A stretch of 64,000 bases of DNA from Bacillota bacterium (lineage in GTDB: Bacteria; Bacillota; Sulfobacillia; JAIMAT01), in assembly GCA_029961055.1 (NCBI GenBank), contig JASBVM010000012.1:55741-119740 (forward strand), in the 5' to 3' direction. The first letter of the stretch is position 1; every line of letters begins with the position of its first letter. Below the pieces are notes generated by a model. The model was not told the DNA's origin. It did no database searches and worked only from the letters and a program-made list of their open reading frames with translations. The position numbers were made by a program, and so were the translations under genes. Below, piece by piece: positions 28,751 through 35,731 of the stretch.

Positions 28751-29413
28751 GTGATGCCGTTGTTCGTCCGCAACTTCTGGCGGACGGACATCCTTTCCGT
28801 CCGGGTCGAGACGACGGCCGACGAGGCGCTGGCGGTCCTGCAGGACACGGGCGTCACCTCGCTGCCGGTGACGCGGGGGAAGGAGCTGGTGGGCGTCATC
28901 ACCGCCCGTGCCGTCTACGACTGGGCGCTGGCCGGGCGCTTCCCGCCGGCCACCGTGGGCGACCTGATGGAGGAAGCGCCGGAACCGCTCCACCCCGACG
29001 ACGTGATCGAGGCGGTGGCCGTCCGCATGCTGGGCGAGCCCCTCAACTTCCTGCCCGTGGTGGACGAGGGCGGCGAGCTGATCGCCATCGTCACCCGGGA
29101 CGCCCTCATCGCCGAATTCGCCCGTCTCTTCGGCGCGGGCGAGGAGAACACGCGCTTCACCCTGGCGGCCGTGGAGCGACCCGGCCAACTGGAGCGGATC
29201 GCCCGCATCGTGGGCGCCCACGGCGGGAACATCACCCACGTGGTCACCCACCGGGCGGAGCGCGCCGGCGCCTACCTGATCATGCTCCGGGTCGACGTCG
29301 AGAGCCCCGGCGCCCTGGCCAAGGCCTTCGCCGAGGCAGGCTTCGGCGTCGTCGACGTCTTCAACTTCCGGAACGGCCGCCGGATCGGACTGGCCACGTC
29401 CCCGCAGGAGTGA
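28751..29413 (+). CDS. CBS-pair plus ACT domain protein (AcuB-like)
   Basis: Two CBS motifs (VTSLPVTRGKELVGVITARAV; PLNFLPVVDEGGELIAIVTRDAL) followed by a C-terminal ACT-like fold. Confidence 0.7.
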   Translation: MMPLFVRNFWRTDILSVRVETTADEALAVLQDTGVTSLPVTRGKELVGVITARAVYDWALAGRFPPATVGDLMEEAPEPLHPDDVIEAVAVRMLGEPLNFLPVVDEGGELIAIVTRDALIAEFARLFGAGEENTRFTLAAVERPGQLERIARIVGAHGGNITHVVTHRAERAGAYLIMLRVDVESPGALAKAFAEAGFGVVDVFNFRNGRRIGLATSPQE

Positions 29414-29449
29414 TCGCCCGGAGGCCGGGCCTCCGGGCGATCCCCCGAT

Positions 29450-31519
29450 CTAGCCGCGTGGACCCGCCAGGTACTCTTCGAACCAGCCGACGATCCTTTC
29501 CAGCCGGTCGACCCGGTGCCACGGCTTCCCCGAGCGGGAGAGCTCGTGGCTCTCCCCCGGGTAGCGGACGAAGCGGACGGTCCTGCCCAGTTTCTTCAGG
29601 GCCGCGTAGAGCTGCTCCCCCTGTTCGATGGGGCATCGCCAGTCGTTCTCCGCATGGAGGATGAGGAGAGGCGTCCGGATCCGGTCCACGTACGTGAGCG
29701 GCGACATCCGCCGGTAGGGCTCCGGGTCGCGCCAGGGCAGCGCCCCGCCGAACATCTCGTCGTCCAGGAAGCCGAAGTCGCCGGAACCGAAGTCGCTCTC
29801 CCAGTTGACGACGCTGCGCATGGTGACGGCGGCGCGGAAGCGGTCGGTGTGGCTGACCGCCCAGTTGGTCATGAAGCCGCCGTAGCTTCCTCCCGCGATG
29901 CCCACCCGCTCGGGGTCGAGGCCGCCCCGGGCGAGGCCCGCGTCCAGCAGGGCCATCACGTCCTCGAAGTCGTCCGTCCCCCAGCGGCCGTGGATCGAGT
30001 TCCGGAAGGCCTCGCCGTACCCCTCGGAGCCGCGCGGGTTGGACCAGAGGACGGCGAAGCCGCGGGCGCGGAGGAGCTGGAACTCGAAGAAGAAGGCGCC
30101 CGTGTACATGGCCGCGGGGCCTCCGTGCACCTCCAGCACCGCCGGCACGGGCCGGGCCTGCGGACCGTTGTCCGCCGGCCGGAGGAGCCAGCCGTCGACC
30201 TCCGGGCTCCCGGGCTTCGCCCGGAAGGTGAAGTGCTCGGGTGCGCCCAGGTCGACGGAGTCGAGGAGCTCCGCGTTGATCCGCGTCAACCGCCGCAGTC
30301 CCTCCTCGTCCGGACGGCCGCGCCAGAGGTCGCAGGGCGTCCGTGCGTCCGTGCCGAGGGCGACGAAGAAGGAACGGTCGCGCGGCCAGGCCACGCCGAA
30401 AAGGCTCGGTTCCTCCGGCGTCAGCGCCTCCGCCCGGCCGTCCGCCACCGCCAGGCCGAAGAGCCGCGTGCTGCCGCGATCGGAGACCAGCGCGTAGATC
30501 CGGCCCCCGTCGGCGGACCAGGCGAGGCGGGCCCCGCCGTCGTGACCGCGGGTGTCGCCGATCGAGGCGTCCAGAAAGGAGCGGTCGGTGCCGCCGCTCA
30601 GGGAGCGGGCGGGCGAGGAACCGTCGGCGGCGACCAGCCAGACCTCGGCGTTCCCCTGCGAGCCGTCGGGGTGCTTCCGCGAGAAGAGATAGGCGATCCG
30701 CGCGCCGTCCGGCGACCAGGAGGGCGACCCGACCCCGCCCCCGCCCGCGCTCAGCCGGCGTGGCTCGCCTCCCTCCGCCGGGACCACGTAGAGGTCGGTC
30801 AGGTCCGGATGCATGTCGTCGCGCCGGGAGACGTAGGCCACCTGCCGGCCGTCCGGCGAGGGCGCCGCCTCCTCGTCGTCGTACTCGCCCGGCCCGGTCA
30901 GCCGTCGCAGCCGCTCGGGCCCGGCCGGCTCCCCGTCGGCCGGCATCTCCGCCAGGTCCAACAGGAAGAGGTGGGAGCGCTCCTGGAAGATGTAGCCCAC
31001 GGTGTCGATGCGGTAGAAGATCCGGTCGATGACGCGGACGTCGCGGGTGTAGCGCTCCCGCTGGGCGCCCGCCTCCTCCGGGAGGGGGCCCTCTTCCTTG
31101 GGATCGGGCGGTTCGGGGCCGTCGCGGCCCTCGCGGACGGTGAGGAGGAGGCGCCGCTCGTCCAGCCAGGCGAAGTCGGTGATCCCCTTCACCCGCGTCA
31201 GCTGTCGCGCCTCGCCGCCGCCTGCCGGCATCAGCCAGATCTGGTCGGAGCCGGAGCGGTCGGAGAAGAAGGCGACCTGCCGCCCCCCGGGCGAGAAGCA
31301 CGGGTGGCGGTCGCGGCCCTCCTCCGGCGGGTTGGTCCAGGGCAGCGGGGTTCCGCCCTCCAGGGGATCGACGGCGATCAGGCGGGAGCGGTACCGGTTC
31401 CGGCGGGGATCGACGGTGGTCTCGACGGCGAGAAGCCGGGAGCCGTCCGGCGACAGCTCCGGCTCCCCCAGGAAGCGGAGCCGCAGGAGATCCTCCGCTT
31501 CCAGAGCTCGCAACGGCAT
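29450..31519 (-). CDS. S9 family serine peptidase (prolyl oligopeptidase/acylaminoacyl-peptidase-like) with N-terminal beta-propeller
   Basis: C-terminal GIAGGSYGGFMT nucleophile elbow plus the D and H of the triad; propeller repeats (SPDG.). Confidence 0.85.
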   Translation of the reverse strand: MPLRALEAEDLLRLRFLGEPELSPDGSRLLAVETTVDPRRNRYRSRLIAVDPLEGGTPLPWTNPPEEGRDRHPCFSPGGRQVAFFSDRSGSDQIWLMPAGGGEARQLTRVKGITDFAWLDERRLLLTVREGRDGPEPPDPKEEGPLPEEAGAQRERYTRDVRVIDRIFYRIDTVGYIFQERSHLFLLDLAEMPADGEPAGPERLRRLTGPGEYDDEEAAPSPDGRQVAYVSRRDDMHPDLTDLYVVPAEGGEPRRLSAGGGGVGSPSWSPDGARIAYLFSRKHPDGSQGNAEVWLVAADGSSPARSLSGGTDRSFLDASIGDTRGHDGGARLAWSADGGRIYALVSDRGSTRLFGLAVADGRAEALTPEEPSLFGVAWPRDRSFFVALGTDARTPCDLWRGRPDEEGLRRLTRINAELLDSVDLGAPEHFTFRAKPGSPEVDGWLLRPADNGPQARPVPAVLEVHGGPAAMYTGAFFFEFQLLRARGFAVLWSNPRGSEGYGEAFRNSIHGRWGTDDFEDVMALLDAGLARGGLDPERVGIAGGSYGGFMTNWAVSHTDRFRAAVTMRSVVNWESDFGSGDFGFLDDEMFGGALPWRDPEPYRRMSPLTYVDRIRTPLLILHAENDWRCPIEQGEQLYAALKKLGRTVRFVRYPGESHELSRSGKPWHRVDRLERIVGWFEEYLAGPRG

Positions 31520-31523
31520 AGCT

Positions 31524-32498
31524 TCACCCCTTTCCCCCCGAGCCTACCACGCCGTTGCCACCGCCGCCCCGGCCCGTCGGACCCTCCATCTCCAGGAGGC
31601 CGAGGAGCGAGGCGAGGACCGCCGGCGGCCGGATCACCTCCATGCACACCTTCCACGGGCATTCCCAGTCAAGCGGCTGTTCCATGCAATTGAGCCCGCA
31701 GGCCCCCTGGACGGGGAGGGCGTTGGGGTAGGGAGGCGCCCAGAGCCAGGCCTGGGCGGGACCGAAGAGGACCACCGTGGGGCGCCCCTGGACGGCGGCC
31801 AGATGGGCGAGACCGTTGTCCACGGCGACCATCGCCCGTGCCGCGCTGATCAGGTCGAGCGTTCCCAGGATGCCGGCCTTGCCCAGGCGGGGCAGCCCCG
31901 CGCGGGCCAGCTCTGCCACCTGATGGGAATAGGCTTCCTCCGGGCGGCCGACCACGGCGACGCGCCAGCCGCGCCCCTCCAGGCCCGCCGCCAGCTCCAG
32001 CCAGTGGGCCGTCGGCCAGAGCTTGTTCAGCCGCCGGCCTCCCGGGGCCAGGAGGAGAAGGCGGTCCAGGTCGGCGGGATCGATCCCCGCCTCGCGCAGC
32101 TCCCCGGCCGCCGGCGGGCGGCGGACCAGCTCGGGCCGCCCGGGAGCGGGCGGGAAGCCGAAGATCCGCTCCAGCACCCGGAGCATGTGGATGGGGCCGA
32201 AGGCGCGGGTGAAGGCCTCCGAGCCCCACCACCAGCGCCGTTGCAGGGGGTGCTCGCGGAGGTCGAAGAAACGGATCCCGGCCGGGGCCCCCCCGCCTCG
32301 CCGGCGACCGCGCTCCGCCAGGAACCGTTCCACGGTCACCGTCCGGTCGACCCAGGGCGCCCGGGTGAGGAGCTCCGCCTGCACGGGGGAGGGGCAGGCC
32401 ACGACCAGCTCCCCCTCCTCCCCCAGGCGCCGGAGGAAGGGGAGGGTGAGCGCCAGGTCGCCGATCCCGGCACCGTAGAGGCGGACCCAGCTCGCCCT
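31524..32498 (-). CDS. Glycosyltransferase family 9 (heptosyltransferase-like); start codon unresolved
   Basis: VRLYGAGIGDLALTLPFLRRL (N-terminal GT9 motif) ... VAVDNGLAHLAAVQGRPTVVLFGP (C-terminal GT9 motif). No ATG/GTG/TTG lies in frame in the 62 nt between the trpP stop and the conserved N-terminus. Confidence 0.6.
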   Translation of the reverse strand, partial: RASWVRLYGAGIGDLALTLPFLRRLGEEGELVVACPSPVQAELLTRAPWVDRTVTVERFLAERGRRRGGGAPAGIRFFDLREHPLQRRWWWGSEAFTRAFGPIHMLRVLERIFGFPPAPGRPELVRRPPAAGELREAGIDPADLDRLLLLAPGGRRLNKLWPTAHWLELAAGLEGRGWRVAVVGRPEEAYSHQVAELARAGLPRLGKAGILGTLDLISAARAMVAVDNGLAHLAAVQGRPTVVLFGPAQAWLWAPPYPNALPVQGACGLNCMEQPLDWECPWKVCMEVIRPPAVLASLLGLLEMEGPTGRGGGGNGVVGSGGKG

Positions 32499-32551
32499 GG
32501 CGCTCCCTGAATCCGTGCCGCTCGCCTCCTGCGCCGGCGACCGGACCGCCC

Positions 32552-33127
32552 TCAGCGACCCGGGCCCTGGAGGGCCGGGGAGCCGGTCAGGCGGCGCGCG
32601 GCGCGGGCGACGGGATAGAGGACGGCCACCACCACCGCGTTGGCCAGCGCGGCGGGCAGGACCACCGCCAGCAGCGTGGCGGGGAAGGCCGCCGCCGGGA
32701 AGACGCCCAGCACCATCGCCGTGCTCAGGAAGACCGTCCCGCTGATCAGCGTGCCGAGGACCGCCACCCCGATCGAGAGCAGGTTGGGCTGAAGCCGCGA
32801 GAAGAGCCGGATGAGGCCGACCAGCACCAGGGTGGTGACCAGTTTGTCCACCAGGTTGGGGATCTGGCCGCCGGGCATGCTGGTGGTGATGGCGGTGATG
32901 GCGCCCGCGGCCAGCCCGGCCGCCACGTCCAGCGTCACGTTCCGGTAGAGGAGCAGGATGATGAAGAGCATGCCCAGCACCAGGTCCGGCTTGACGCCCG
33001 CGTACAGGGCCGGCGTCACCACGTGGAGGACGTAGCCCACGGCCAGGAGGACCGCGGCCGTCACCAGGTCGACGACGCGCAGCGCCTCCCCCGGACCGCC
33101 CTCGCCTTGCCGCATCGCGCTCTGCAT
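32552..33127 (-). CDS. trpP: TrpP-family tryptophan transporter (ECF S-component-like)
   Basis: GVKPDLVLGMLFIILLLYRNVTLDVAAGLAAGAITAITTSMPGGQIPNLVDK aligns with B. subtilis TrpP/YhaG (GMKPDMMLTMMF...TAFPGGQLPNIIDK). AAGGAGGT RBS. Confidence 0.8.
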   Translation of the reverse strand: MQSAMRQGEGGPGEALRVVDLVTAAVLLAVGYVLHVVTPALYAGVKPDLVLGMLFIILLLYRNVTLDVAAGLAAGAITAITTSMPGGQIPNLVDKLVTTLVLVGLIRLFSRLQPNLLSIGVAVLGTLISGTVFLSTAMVLGVFPAAAFPATLLAVVLPAALANAVVVAVLYPVARAARRLTGSPALQGPGR

Positions 33128-33244
33128 CGCCGTCCGACCTCCTTGGGCCCGGCGTCCGACCGGAGCCCTGTAGAAGAGACCGCCACCGCCCCGCCGGCCT
33201 CCACCGGCCCCCGCAGATGGGAGGGCGGGCGCGCCGGCCCCGGG

Positions 33245-33590
33245 TCCCCCGGATGCAAAAGGCTCCGTCCCTTGCGGGACGGAGCCTTCCGTGGTGCCAC
33301 CCGGCTTCGCCGCCCGGAGGCGGCGCGCTCGACGGCGGCCCGCCTGCCGCGCGGCCCGGCCGGGGCCGGGCGTCGCGGTGGATGGAGCCGCCTCCCCCTC
33401 TATCGGCGGGGTCCCCGCCGGGCTCCCTCTCTCGTCCAGCCTGGGCTGCACGGAGGTTCGGCCCGGAGGCTCGCGGGTCCATTCGCCGGCTTCCCCGCGC
33501 CGGTTTCCAGCTTCCCGGCTCTCTGGGGCGGGGGTGCTCCGGGTACTCTTCCCGGTCATCGCCTGCTTCGGTCGCGGTGCGGTTATCAGT
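33245..33590 (-). promoter_or_regulatory. T-box riboswitch leader (Trp specifier) controlling trpP
   Basis: On the minus strand: Stem I with AGAGAG distal motif and a 3'-side specifier loop GAAUGGA (UGG codon plus purine). T-box sequence GGGUGGCACCACGG (consensus GGGUGGNACCGCGG; N=C fits G73 of tRNA-Trp) at 33302-33289. Terminator AAGGCUCCGUCCC-gcaa-GGGACGGAGCCUUUUG at 33288-33257. Leader is about 340 nt. Confidence 0.6.
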
Positions 33591-33593
33591 CCC

Positions 33594-33624
33594 ACTATGC
33601 TCTTCCGGCCCATGCCCTGTCAAC
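33594..33624 (-). promoter_or_regulatory. Sigma-A promoter for the T-box/trpP transcript (TTGACA-18 nt-CATAGT)
   Basis: Perfect -35 hexamer and a 4/6 -10 on the minus strand immediately upstream of the predicted leader. Confidence 0.4.
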
Positions 33625-33688
33625 ACGCCGGCGGCTGCTGCAGATCCGCGTGCCACCCGTGGTAAGCTCTGGCGCAGGAGGGATCGGC

Positions 33689-33988
33689 ATGTTGGGAGCA
33701 GGCAGAAGGTGGCTTCGTCGTGCCGCCGGGCTCACCTTCGCCGCGGGCTTGGTCGCCAGCACCACGCTGGGGGCGGCCGCCGGGGCCGCGGTGGGCGCGG
33801 GCCTGCGCGAGCTGGGCCGCACCCGGCACCGGCGCGGGGAATTCGAGGACGAGGAGTTCCGGCGCCGGTTCCGCGAGTTCCGCCGGCGCATGGGCCACGC
33901 CTTCGAGGTCTGGCGCGACCCGCTGCCGGAGGAGCGGGGCGGGTCGGAAGGGTACCGGCCCTCCATCGAGCCCGAGGACGACGTCTGA
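33689..33988 (+). CDS. Hypothetical small membrane-anchored protein with highly charged C-terminus (100 aa)
   Basis: GCAGGAGGG RBS then ATG. One TM segment (LTFAAGLVASTTLGAAAGAAVGAG), then an RR/EE-rich tail. Ends 12 nt before the ubiB-like gene. Confidence 0.45.
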   Translation: MLGAGRRWLRRAAGLTFAAGLVASTTLGAAAGAAVGAGLRELGRTRHRRGEFEDEEFRRRFREFRRRMGHAFEVWRDPLPEERGGSEGYRPSIEPEDDV

Positions 33989-34000
33989 GCCGATCGCCCG

Positions 34001-35731
34001 GTGAACGCCCTGCGTCGCAGCGCGACCGTCCTGGCGCTGGTCGCCGGCATCGCGCTGGAGTGGCTTTGGGTGGCGGCCCTTCACCGCCTGGGCCGGAGGG
34101 AGCAGGCGAGCCGCGTCGCCGCCCGTCTCCTGCCGGTCCAGGCGCGGCGGCTGCGCCGCGCCGCCCTGCGCCTCCAGGGGCTCCTGATCAAGGTCGGCCA
34201 GTTCCTGAGCACGCGGATCGACGTCTTGCCCGAATCCTTCACCAGCGAGCTGGCCGCCCTCCAGGACGTCGTCCCGGCCGCACCCTGGGAGGCGATCCGG
34301 CTTCGCCTGCAACAGGCTTACGGCCCTCCGGACTCGTGGCCTTTCGCGCGCGTGGAGCAGGAAGCGGTGGCCGCCGCCTCGCTGGCCCAGGTCCACCGCG
34401 CCTGGCTCGACGACGGGCGCCTCCTGGCGCTCAAGATCCTCCGGCCCGGCATCGAGCGGATGGTCGAGACCGACCTCTGGTCGCTGGGCGTGGCCGCCCG
34501 CCTGGCCGCCCGCTGGACCTCGTGGGGACGGCGCTACGACCTGCTCCGGATCTACCAGGAGTTCCGCGAGACCACCCTGGCCGAGCTCGACCTGCTCGGC
34601 GAGGCGGACCGCGCGCTCCGCTTCGCCGCCGACTTCGCCGGCCGGCGAGGCATCCGCGTCCCCCGCATCCACCGGGAGCTCTCCACCCGCACCACCCTGG
34701 CGATGAGCTACGAGGAAGGGATCCCCTGCGACGACGTGCGCGCCCTGGAAGCGGCGGGCATCGACCCGCGCCGGGTCGCCCACCGCCTGGTCCGCGCCAC
34801 CATGCGCCAGATCCTGGATCACGGCTTCTTCCACGCCGACCCCCATCCGGGCAACGTCTTCGTCACCTCCGGGGGCGCCCTGCTCTACCTCGACTTCGGC
34901 ATGATGGGCGAGGTCCGCCCCGAGGACCGGGAGGGGGTGGCCCACCTGCTCCTCTCGCTCCTGGGGCGGGATCCCGAGGGGATCGCCCAGGCGGTGGTCG
35001 AGCTGGACTTCGTCCGCCCGGGTGTCGACCGTGAGGCGCTTCGCCAGACCATGGCCTTCGCCATGGAGCGCCTCCTCTCCGCCAACACCGCCGAGGACCC
35101 CGAGGCCTTCGTCCGCTTCACCCACGAGATGGGCGACTTTCTCTACGCGCATCCCTTCCAGTTGCCGGCCCGCTACCTCTTCCTCGGGCGGGCGCTGGGC
35201 ATGGTCGCCGGCACCTTCACCAGGCTGGCGCCGGGAGAGGACTTCATGGGCACCGTCCTGGAAGCGGGCCGCGAGCTCCTGCTGGGGAACGGCACCATCG
35301 CCCGCGGACTGGCGGGCGCCCTCCTCCCCGTGCGCGCCGGCTCCGCCGCGACGGCCGGCGCGGATCCGCCCTCCTCCCGCCCCGCAGGCGCCGGTGACCG
35401 CCTCCCCGGGCAGGTGCTCCTCGGCATCCTCCAGCCGTGGCTCCGCCTCCCCCGCACGCTGGAGACGATCCAGCGCACCCTCTCGGCGCAGGAAGCGCGG
35501 CAGAACCCCGCCTTCGCGGCCCATGCGGCCGAGGCCGGGGCCCGCACCCGGCCGGTCGAAGCGCGGCTGGTCGACCGCCTCGTCTGGGCCTGGTGGGCCG
35601 GCCTCCTCGGCCTCGTCCTCCTCTTCGGCCCGGCCGCCGGCGGGCTCGCCGCCGAGCCGCACTTCCGCCTGGGCGCCGCGGTGGCGGAGGCGGGAGCCCT
35701 CTTCCTGTGGCTGAGGACCTACCGGCGCTAG
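34001..35731 (+). CDS. ABC1/UbiB-family atypical protein kinase
   Basis: LIKVGQFLSTRIDVLP, ...AAASLAQVHRA..., HADPHPGN catalytic motif, C-terminal TM helices; GTG start. Confidence 0.85.
   Translation: MNALRRSATVLALVAGIALEWLWVAALHRLGRREQASRVAARLLPVQARRLRRAALRLQGLLIKVGQFLSTRIDVLPESFTSELAALQDVVPAAPWEAIRLRLQQAYGPPDSWPFARVEQEAVAAASLAQVHRAWLDDGRLLALKILRPGIERMVETDLWSLGVAARLAARWTSWGRRYDLLRIYQEFRETTLAELDLLGEADRALRFAADFAGRRGIRVPRIHRELSTRTTLAMSYEEGIPCDDVRALEAAGIDPRRVAHRLVRATMRQILDHGFFHADPHPGNVFVTSGGALLYLDFGMMGEVRPEDREGVAHLLLSLLGRDPEGIAQAVVELDFVRPGVDREALRQTMAFAMERLLSANTAEDPEAFVRFTHEMGDFLYAHPFQLPARYLFLGRALGMVAGTFTRLAPGEDFMGTVLEAGRELLLGNGTIARGLAGALLPVRAGSAATAGADPPSSRPAGAGDRLPGQVLLGILQPWLRLPRTLETIQRTLSAQEARQNPAFAAHAAEAGARTRPVEARLVDRLVWAWWAGLLGLVLLFGPAAGGLAAEPHFRLGAAVAEAGALFLWLRTYRR

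Follow-up and report, generated by a model that had tools for sequence, protein, structure and literature searches.

A tryptophan transporter gene, trpP, lies beside an unannotated gap in an uncultured, high-GC member of the Bacillota, which raises the question of what controls the gene and which signal is read. In the window, the whole 64-kb stretch of DNA analysed here (73% G+C), the gap between the start codons of trpP (ATG, 33127) and a divergent open reading frame (ORF; ATG, 33689) measures 561 nt, in line with the 560 nt given by an earlier, sequence-only reading. A regulator and a predicted ligand can now be assigned to this gap: its minus strand very probably carries a feature-complete, transcription-attenuating T-box leader specific for tRNA-Trp, which would control trpP and probably also the two genes that follow.

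The locus and the elements of the leader

Many long ORFs in the window are spurious because of the high G+C content, and the real genes were chosen by third-position G+C together with Pfam matches. Apart from the leader, the features of the locus are the following:

33689-33988, plus strand: divergent 99-codon ORF, adjoining the ABC1 kinase gene
32552..33127, minus strand: trpP, 191-aa tryptophan transporter (PF17099, E 5.7e-38)
31524..32516, minus strand: family 9 glycosyltransferase (GT9) gene (PF01075, E 5.4e-21)
29450..31519, minus strand: S9 family peptidase gene (PF00326, E 3.3e-55)
29412..29442: perfect 15-nt palindrome with a 1-nt centre, after the peptidase stop codon

The product of trpP, recognised as TrpP already in the sequence-only reading, is identical to NCBI entry MDI3316972.1 ("tryptophan transporter"), from a Bacillota bacterium MAG, and the T-box independently supports this label. 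The Shine-Dalgarno (SD) sequence of the gene, AAGGAGG, lies at 33144..33138, and 130 nt separate the end of the leader from the start of trpP. Homologues of TrpP are few at high identity (97%, 73%, 55%, and 52%). Those of L001-L006 (metagenome assemblies) are 73% identical and that of L009 (MAG Bacillota bacterium Bu54) is 70% identical. These loci share with the window a gene order of plsX, ABC1 kinase and a small ORF, followed on the opposite strand by leader, trpP, GT9 and S9 peptidase; L001 extends further, to the next two genes (CBS-ACT and ispH). The divergent ORF has neither a Pfam nor an NCBIfam match, and its conservation in L001 and L009 is confined to the C-terminal 33 residues (67-76% identical). 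There is no tRNA-Trp gene within the 64-kb window. An 80-nt tRNA-Gly(tcc) called by ARAGORN inside the ABC1 kinase ORF (35450..35529, minus strand), in G+C-rich coding sequence, is a probable false positive and was rejected because Rfam shows no tRNA there, even at E <= 0.01.

The leader and its promoter extend from 33623 to 33257 and comprise, in order:

33623..33594, minus strand: sigma-70-type promoter, with -35 TTGACA (33623..33618), an 18-nt spacer and -10 CATAGT (33599..33594)
33469..33562, minus strand: Stem I, with K-turn, specifier loop, AG bulge and distal loop (RF00230 partial match)
33418..33466, minus strand: Stem II, with base CCGGGC/GCCCGG and a variable apical part
33395..33417, minus strand: Stem IIA/B pseudoknot, with IIA CGG...CCG and the IIB loop CCCC pairing with a downstream GGGG
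33334..33392, minus strand: 59-nt hairpin of 22 pairs in the inter-domain linker, between the pseudoknot and Stem III
33306..33330, minus strand: purine string GAGCG (RRRxG), Stem III and AA (RF00230 partial match)
33275..33303, minus strand: antiterminator, with A1 CGGG/CCCG, the bulge and A2 ACGGA/UCCGU
33257..33288, minus strand: intrinsic terminator AAGGCUCCGUCCC-GCAA-GGGACGGAGCCUU, then UU

The sequence-only reading had proposed a TTGACA-18-CATAGT promoter, a Stem I-like helix with an AGAGAG distal motif and a GAAUGGA loop, a UGG-plus-purine specifier, and a T-box sequence overlapping a 13-bp terminator hairpin followed by UUUUG, and all of these are recovered. The promoter gives 10/12 matches (0 in 50 shuffles) and is the sole promoter-like site in 32900..33900. 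Both of its hexamers are conserved in L001 and L009 (TTGACA / GATAGT, 17-nt spacers), and the spacer sequence diverges. Stem I contains a K-turn (GCGAUGA...GAGC), a specifier loop (AGUA / GAA-UGG-A) and an AG bulge (AGAGA, within 33525..33518). Within GAAUGGA (33484..33478), the specifier codon UGG (Trp) occupies 33481..33479 and is followed by the purine A at 33478 and, in the RF00230 alignment, by CCC of the closing helix; this register is the one assigned by the Rfam model. The predicted specifier matches the gene that would be regulated, TrpP. In Stem II, the 5′ GAA of the S-turn is retained; the 3′ AGUA is unrecognisable and a purine-rich run stands in its place. An F-box-like CCGAUA (33406..33401) lies within the Stem IIA/B pseudoknot. 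Stem III is formed by CGCCGCC-UCCG-GGCGGCG (33325..33308) and is flanked by RRRxG ... AA, as in the definition of this motif in the family (PMC7583486).

The antiterminator presents a 7-nt T-box bulge of the UGGNACC type, UGGCACC (33299..33293), between A1 and A2. The UGGC of the bulge is complementary to the tRNA 3′ end GCCA, and thereby predicts G73 in the tRNA-Trp of the host. Bacterial tRNA-Trp generally has G73. The T-box sequence GGGUGGCACCACG at 33302..33290 is the sole exact match in the 64-kb window; at one mismatch, the 13-mer is found 4 times against 5.1 expected in the window, which is no rarer than chance, so that the statistical weight falls on the covariance-model E-values, the status of Stem I as sole Rfam match, and conservation with covariation. 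The terminator has an 11-bp G+C core, extending to 13-16 bp when A-U and G-U pairs are counted, then UUUUG. It folds with a dG of -32.1 kcal/mol (z = -8.3), a stability not matched by any shuffle. The 3′ strands of A2 and A1 make up its 5′ arm, an arrangement known from transcriptional T-boxes (PMC7583486). Through this common strand, the terminator and the alternative antiterminator with the T-box bulge, a competition foreseen in the sequence-only reading, are mutually exclusive folds; constrained to the Rfam pairing, the antiterminator reaches -9.8 kcal/mol.

With the exception of the terminator, thermodynamic folding is uninformative here. The minimum free energy (MFE) fold of Stem I alone is no better than shuffles (z = -0.75), and the same is true of the antiterminator fold alone (z = -0.10). 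A long-range pairing suggested by RNAalifold, between GUGG just past the -10 box and the T-box bulge, was rejected because the bases are in or beside the -10 hexamer, before the point where transcription is likely to start, and because the pairing is complete only in L001.

The terminator also bears on the level at which the leader would act. In many Actinobacteria, T-boxes act on translation, tRNA binding freeing a sequestered ribosome-binding site, and the very high G+C content of 73% would suit such a mode here, as would the U tract of just 4 nt and the failure of a consensus terminator scan to call the hairpin at 33288..33257. The scan misses the hairpin because so few U follow it, however, and the tract is UUUUUUU in L009 and UUUCUU in L001. 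The SD lies >110 nt downstream of the hairpin and outside it, the spacer between hairpin and start codon is poorly conserved by eye, and the hairpin takes its 5′ arm from the A1/A2 3′ strands. Furthermore, a long Stem I is missing from most translational T-boxes (PMC7583486), but here it is of full length. Control at the level of translation is quite improbable on these grounds, and attenuation of transcription is preferred.

Rfam scores and departures from the canonical T-box

The cmsearch with RF00230 that the sequence-only reading had put forward as a check has a divided outcome. At the 93-bit gathering score, there is no match in the whole 64-kb window; at E-value thresholds, the minus strand yields two significant and collinear partial matches. 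Stem I (model positions 1-103) matches at 33568..33465 with 42.1 bits (E 7.6e-8), and Stem III with the antiterminator (model positions 157-216) matches at 33332..33275 with 27.3 bits (E 4.9e-4); together they amount to ~69 bits against the threshold of 93. The two halves are separated by ~135 nt with a divergent Stem II, where the model expects ~53. In a search of the window with 4,227 families on both strands, Stem I is the sole Rfam match at E <= 0.01 (E 6.1e-6).

The high G+C content and the insertions keep the element below the threshold, and departures from the canonical T-box lower the score as well. The leader resembles the feature-complete class I transcriptional T-box of Bacillus subtilis tyrS: its long Stem I contains a K-turn, a specifier loop, an AG bulge and a distal loop; a Stem II and a predicted IIA/B pseudoknot with an F-box-like sequence follow; and after a Stem III with RRRxG...AA comes an antiterminator, bearing a 7-nt UGGNACC bulge, that competes with a terminator. 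In contrast to the canonical RF00230 element, it carries the 59-nt linker hairpin, its F-box is CCGAUA rather than CCGUUA or CCGUCA, the 3′ strand of the S-turn is not AGUA, the specifier loop lacks one nucleotide relative to the model consensus, and the terminator is followed by just 4 U. The base of A2 has an A-U pair (ACC-A-CGG ... CCG-U-CCC) where a G.U is conserved; the U persists and A stands in for the G, which is the "one mismatch" to the T-box consensus counted in the sequence-only reading. According to a review (PMC7583486), the conserved G.U wobble of A2 acts as the chief steric sensor of the 3′-aminoacyl group. The same ACCACG (A-U) variant occurs in six other loci (L001, L009, L008, L011, L013, and L055), including one above the Rfam threshold (L008), and A-U is therefore a recurrent natural variant. 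None of these departures is a ground for exclusion from the family.

The behaviour of other high-GC leaders clarifies what the low score means. Twenty such leaders, with the specifier context of the window and a T-box sequence 112-194 nt downstream, were tested and none reaches 93 bits (0/20); thus, the sub-threshold score reflects the model and not decay. The 93-bit threshold is insensitive for high-GC Trp T-boxes and represents an operational cut-off, not a structural feature. Because RF00230 misses all 20 of these leaders as well as the window element, T-box regulons in high-GC lineages are probably under-annotated; splitting RF00230 into Stem I and discriminator halves recovers the missed high-GC T-boxes.

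In high-GC Trp T-boxes (L089-L206), the specifier context GGCGAAUGGACCC..GAGC and the T-box GGGUGGCACC are identical to those of the window, and the specifier-to-T-box distance of 112-194 nt brackets the 166 nt seen here. They differ from the window element in that most are ACCGCG (G.U) rather than ACCACG, and in controlling biosynthesis or tRNA-synthetase genes rather than a transporter. In a sample of high-GC Trp leaders, the downstream ORFs encode chorismate-binding (TrpE-like), class I W/Y tRNA synthetase, PALP (TrpB-like) and Glycos_transf_3 (TrpD-like) proteins. Metagenome leaders before trpE-, trpS-, trpB- and trpD-like genes carry the context GAAUGG(A/C)CC, which provides independent empirical support for UGG as the specifier. 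A metagenome scan with the specifier-region pattern returned other Trp T-boxes and chance matches, with no further members of the trpP clade.

Conservation and covariation among close relatives

The leaders of the two syntenic relatives (L001 and L009) align with that of the window over their full length, with a mean column identity of 85%, which exceeds the TrpP identity of the same relatives (70-73%). Indels among these leaders are of 1, 2 and 10 nt. The canonical T-box structure was written explicitly from the window sequence, covering Stem I as in Rfam, Stem II, the IIA/B pseudoknot, the linker hairpin, Stem III and the terminator, and its pairs were counted on the alignment of the window and its relatives. 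Standard pairs fill 97.8% of the structure cells, and 10 pairs are changed on both sides (3 independent sequences). None of 500 shuffles matches the observed percentage paired, the number of double changes or the covariation score, and in controls with the partners slid by 1-3 columns, 38-53% of cells are paired, with 0-3 double changes.

The 10 doubly changed pairs fall within the linker hairpin, the terminator, and the basal and middle parts of Stem II. The base helix of Stem II has two double compensatory changes (columns 175-223 and 177-221), and its apical part varies in length among relatives. All 22 pairs of the linker hairpin are 100% paired in all relatives, with double changes at columns 254-304, 271-288 and 276-283, and the terminator has three double compensatory changes. 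No change is seen within this small clade in Stem I (all 18 pairs kept), Stem III or the pseudoknot.

This pattern weighs on two further readings of the leader. It could be a decaying, non-functional T-box relic, with trpP constitutive or otherwise controlled, which would fit the lack of an Rfam match at the gathering score and the departures from conserved positions (A-U for G.U, degenerate S-turn, short U tract). However, the leader has diverged less than the protein that follows it, its helix changes are compensatory, the ACCACG variant is common to L001, L009 and the four other loci, and the other high-GC Trp leaders that fail the threshold belong to trp biosynthesis and trpS-like genes. 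Decay is therefore very improbable.

The region could also be protein-coding, as the ORF list includes a stop-free frame of 353 aa (32552..33613) in frame with trpP, and the L001 homologue, P0002, is called as a 278-aa protein whose start (L001:6001) falls inside the T-box leader. Long stop-free frames are, however, expected at 73% G+C, NCBI annotates the 191-aa form, and the Pfam match begins at residue 20 of that protein. Furthermore, the SD and the ATGCAGA start of trpP are conserved in L001 and L009, and the leader varies by helix-compensatory substitutions and by the indels given above. A coding function is close to untenable, and a functional, transcriptional T-box is the reading retained. 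In the 278-aa call (L001:6001-6837), the first ~87 codons are T-box leader, from Stem II to the terminator. Stop-free frames in high-GC genomes thus let gene callers swallow riboswitch leaders, L001 trpP being an example.

Proposed mechanism and the genes downstream

Knowledge of the family suggests how tRNA would be bound, how its charging would be sensed and in which direction trpP would be regulated. Transcription would begin near 33587, ~7 nt past the -10 box. Stem I would then bind tRNA-Trp with the help of Stem II and the IIA/B pseudoknot, UGG (33481..33479) pairing with the anticodon CCA and the platform of AG bulge and distal loop stacking on the elbow of the tRNA. An uncharged tRNA would pair through its 3′ end GCCA with UGGC of the bulge (33299..33296); with the tRNA docked, the -32 kcal/mol terminator could not form and the polymerase would read into trpP. 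On charged tRNA-Trp, the amino acid would block docking, and the 3′ strands of A1 and A2 would fold into the terminator, yielding a terminated transcript of ~330 nt that ends at 33257. This scheme does not challenge the current understanding of the T-box mechanism.

In Bacillus subtilis, trpP (yhaG) is controlled by the protein TRAP, which recognises (G/U)AG repeats and responds to free tryptophan. As there, the transporter gene of the window would be under tryptophan-dependent control at the RNA level, but the proposed sensor here is the mRNA itself and the signal would be the charging of tRNA-Trp. No periodic (G/U)AG repeat array is seen by eye near the trpP start codon.

Downstream of trpP, the peptidase gene starts 4 nt past the GT9 stop codon, as the sequence-only reading had it. 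The 53-nt gap that it gave before the glycosyltransferase does not hold: the gap ends on AGG (32498), which is not a start codon. Gene callers start GT9 at GTG 32402, which leaves a gap of 149 nt and removes ~30 conserved residues, the N-terminus conserved with L001 and L009 beginning near 32492. Between 32402 and the end of trpP, the GT9 frame has no ATG, GTG or TTG; there is an ACG at 32516, preceded by GGAGG and conserved in L009. Further candidate starts are ATC 32465 and CTG 32456. The missing canonical start could reflect a non-canonical start, translational coupling or an assembly error.

On the minus strand, no promoter-like or terminator-like site occurs from the T-box terminator to the end of the peptidase gene, and the gene layout makes co-transcription of trpP, GT9 and S9 peptidase somewhat more likely than not. 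The S9 peptidase gene and the CBS-ACT gene converge on a 36-nt gap, which holds the palindrome; no U tract comes after the palindrome on either strand. It may mark the end of the transcription unit, and could be a bidirectional terminator or a protein-binding site. The order trpP-GT9-S9 peptidase is kept in L001 and L009, where the flanking genes are kept too, so synteny alone is no proof of functional linkage. In L007, trpP is followed by different genes, and the short L008 contig has no further co-directional gene call. A bolder version of the proposal, in which the T-box governs a unit of trpP, GT9 and S9 peptidase peculiar to this clade and, moreover, the A-U pair and the 59-nt linker hairpin tune the sensing of charging, is doubtful. 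If it were true, falling tRNA-Trp charging would switch on, together, tryptophan uptake, a peptidase that might release tryptophan from peptides, and an envelope glycosyltransferase.

A T-box before trpP belongs to a known family in a gene context that has already been reported, namely in C. difficile 630 (PMC7438776); the element itself is newly assigned. An upstream T-box sequence motif is present at 26 of the 83 trpP-homologue loci checked, and all 20 of the 26 that were searched with RF00230 pass (97-140 bits). That trpP is a type of gene under Trp T-boxes, as the sequence-only reading held, is borne out by these above-threshold T-boxes of Bacillota trpP homologues, with UGG in the printed alignments. 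L008 (TrpP 52% identical) has a full-length RF00230 match of 95.9 bits and L007 (55%) one of 69.6 bits, and both leaders have the GAA-UGG specifier and a UGGC bulge. The context GAA-UGG-R is found in every trpP leader alignment printed. The IIB pairing varies across lineages as UUCCC/GGGAA (L008), GUUUC/GAAAC (L070) and CCCC/GGGG (window), and by eye is covarying.

Compared with the Bacillota trpP T-boxes (C. difficile, L008, L070, L073, L075, and L087), the window element is alike in gene family, in UGG within GAA-UGG-R, and in architecture including an extra hairpin. Theirs score 96-140 bits, whereas the window reaches ~69 bits in two parts. The inter-domain linker between pseudoknot and Stem III is variable in the family (PMC7583486), and an inserted hairpin between F-box and Stem III is present in every trpP T-box alignment printed; consequently, the 59-nt hairpin of the window is an enlarged version of an element typical of the lineage. 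Elsewhere this hairpin is ~25-35 nt, of the type GGAUAUCGAG...CUCCGUAUCU or GAGUAUAAGCC...GGCCGUACUC. A second T-box on the same contig as the trpP T-box of L052 (L052:681-933, 118.6 bits), with the specifier GAA-G-AAG-G and apparently for Lys, has a linker hairpin of the same kind (GAGUAUAAGC...GCCGUACUU), so the insert is not restricted to Trp T-boxes.

The bulge also differs among these leaders: most low-GC ones have UGGU, unlike the UGGC of the window. The combination of UGG specifier and UGGU bulge, which predicts A73, is seen in low-GC L026, L049, L052-L055, L058, L066, L069, L070, L073, L075, L084, L085 and L087, and high-GC trpP T-boxes have UGGC, which predicts G73. From these sequences, either base 73 of tRNA-Trp would differ by lineage or a mismatch would be tolerated.

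The window has no Trp-rich leader peptide between the terminator and trpP. A putative small upstream ORF (uORF) is seen at this place, between T-box terminator and trpP, in L008 (L008:2700-2810), L011 and L013 (TrpP 47-52% identical). It reads M/V-D-E-P-E/D-W-W..., with two adjacent Trp codons, has a purine-rich site resembling a ribosome-binding site, and ends just beyond the trpP start codon. A hint that this putative uORF may be coding comes from synonymous differences (AGA/CGG, TTG/CTG) between its L011 and L013 versions.
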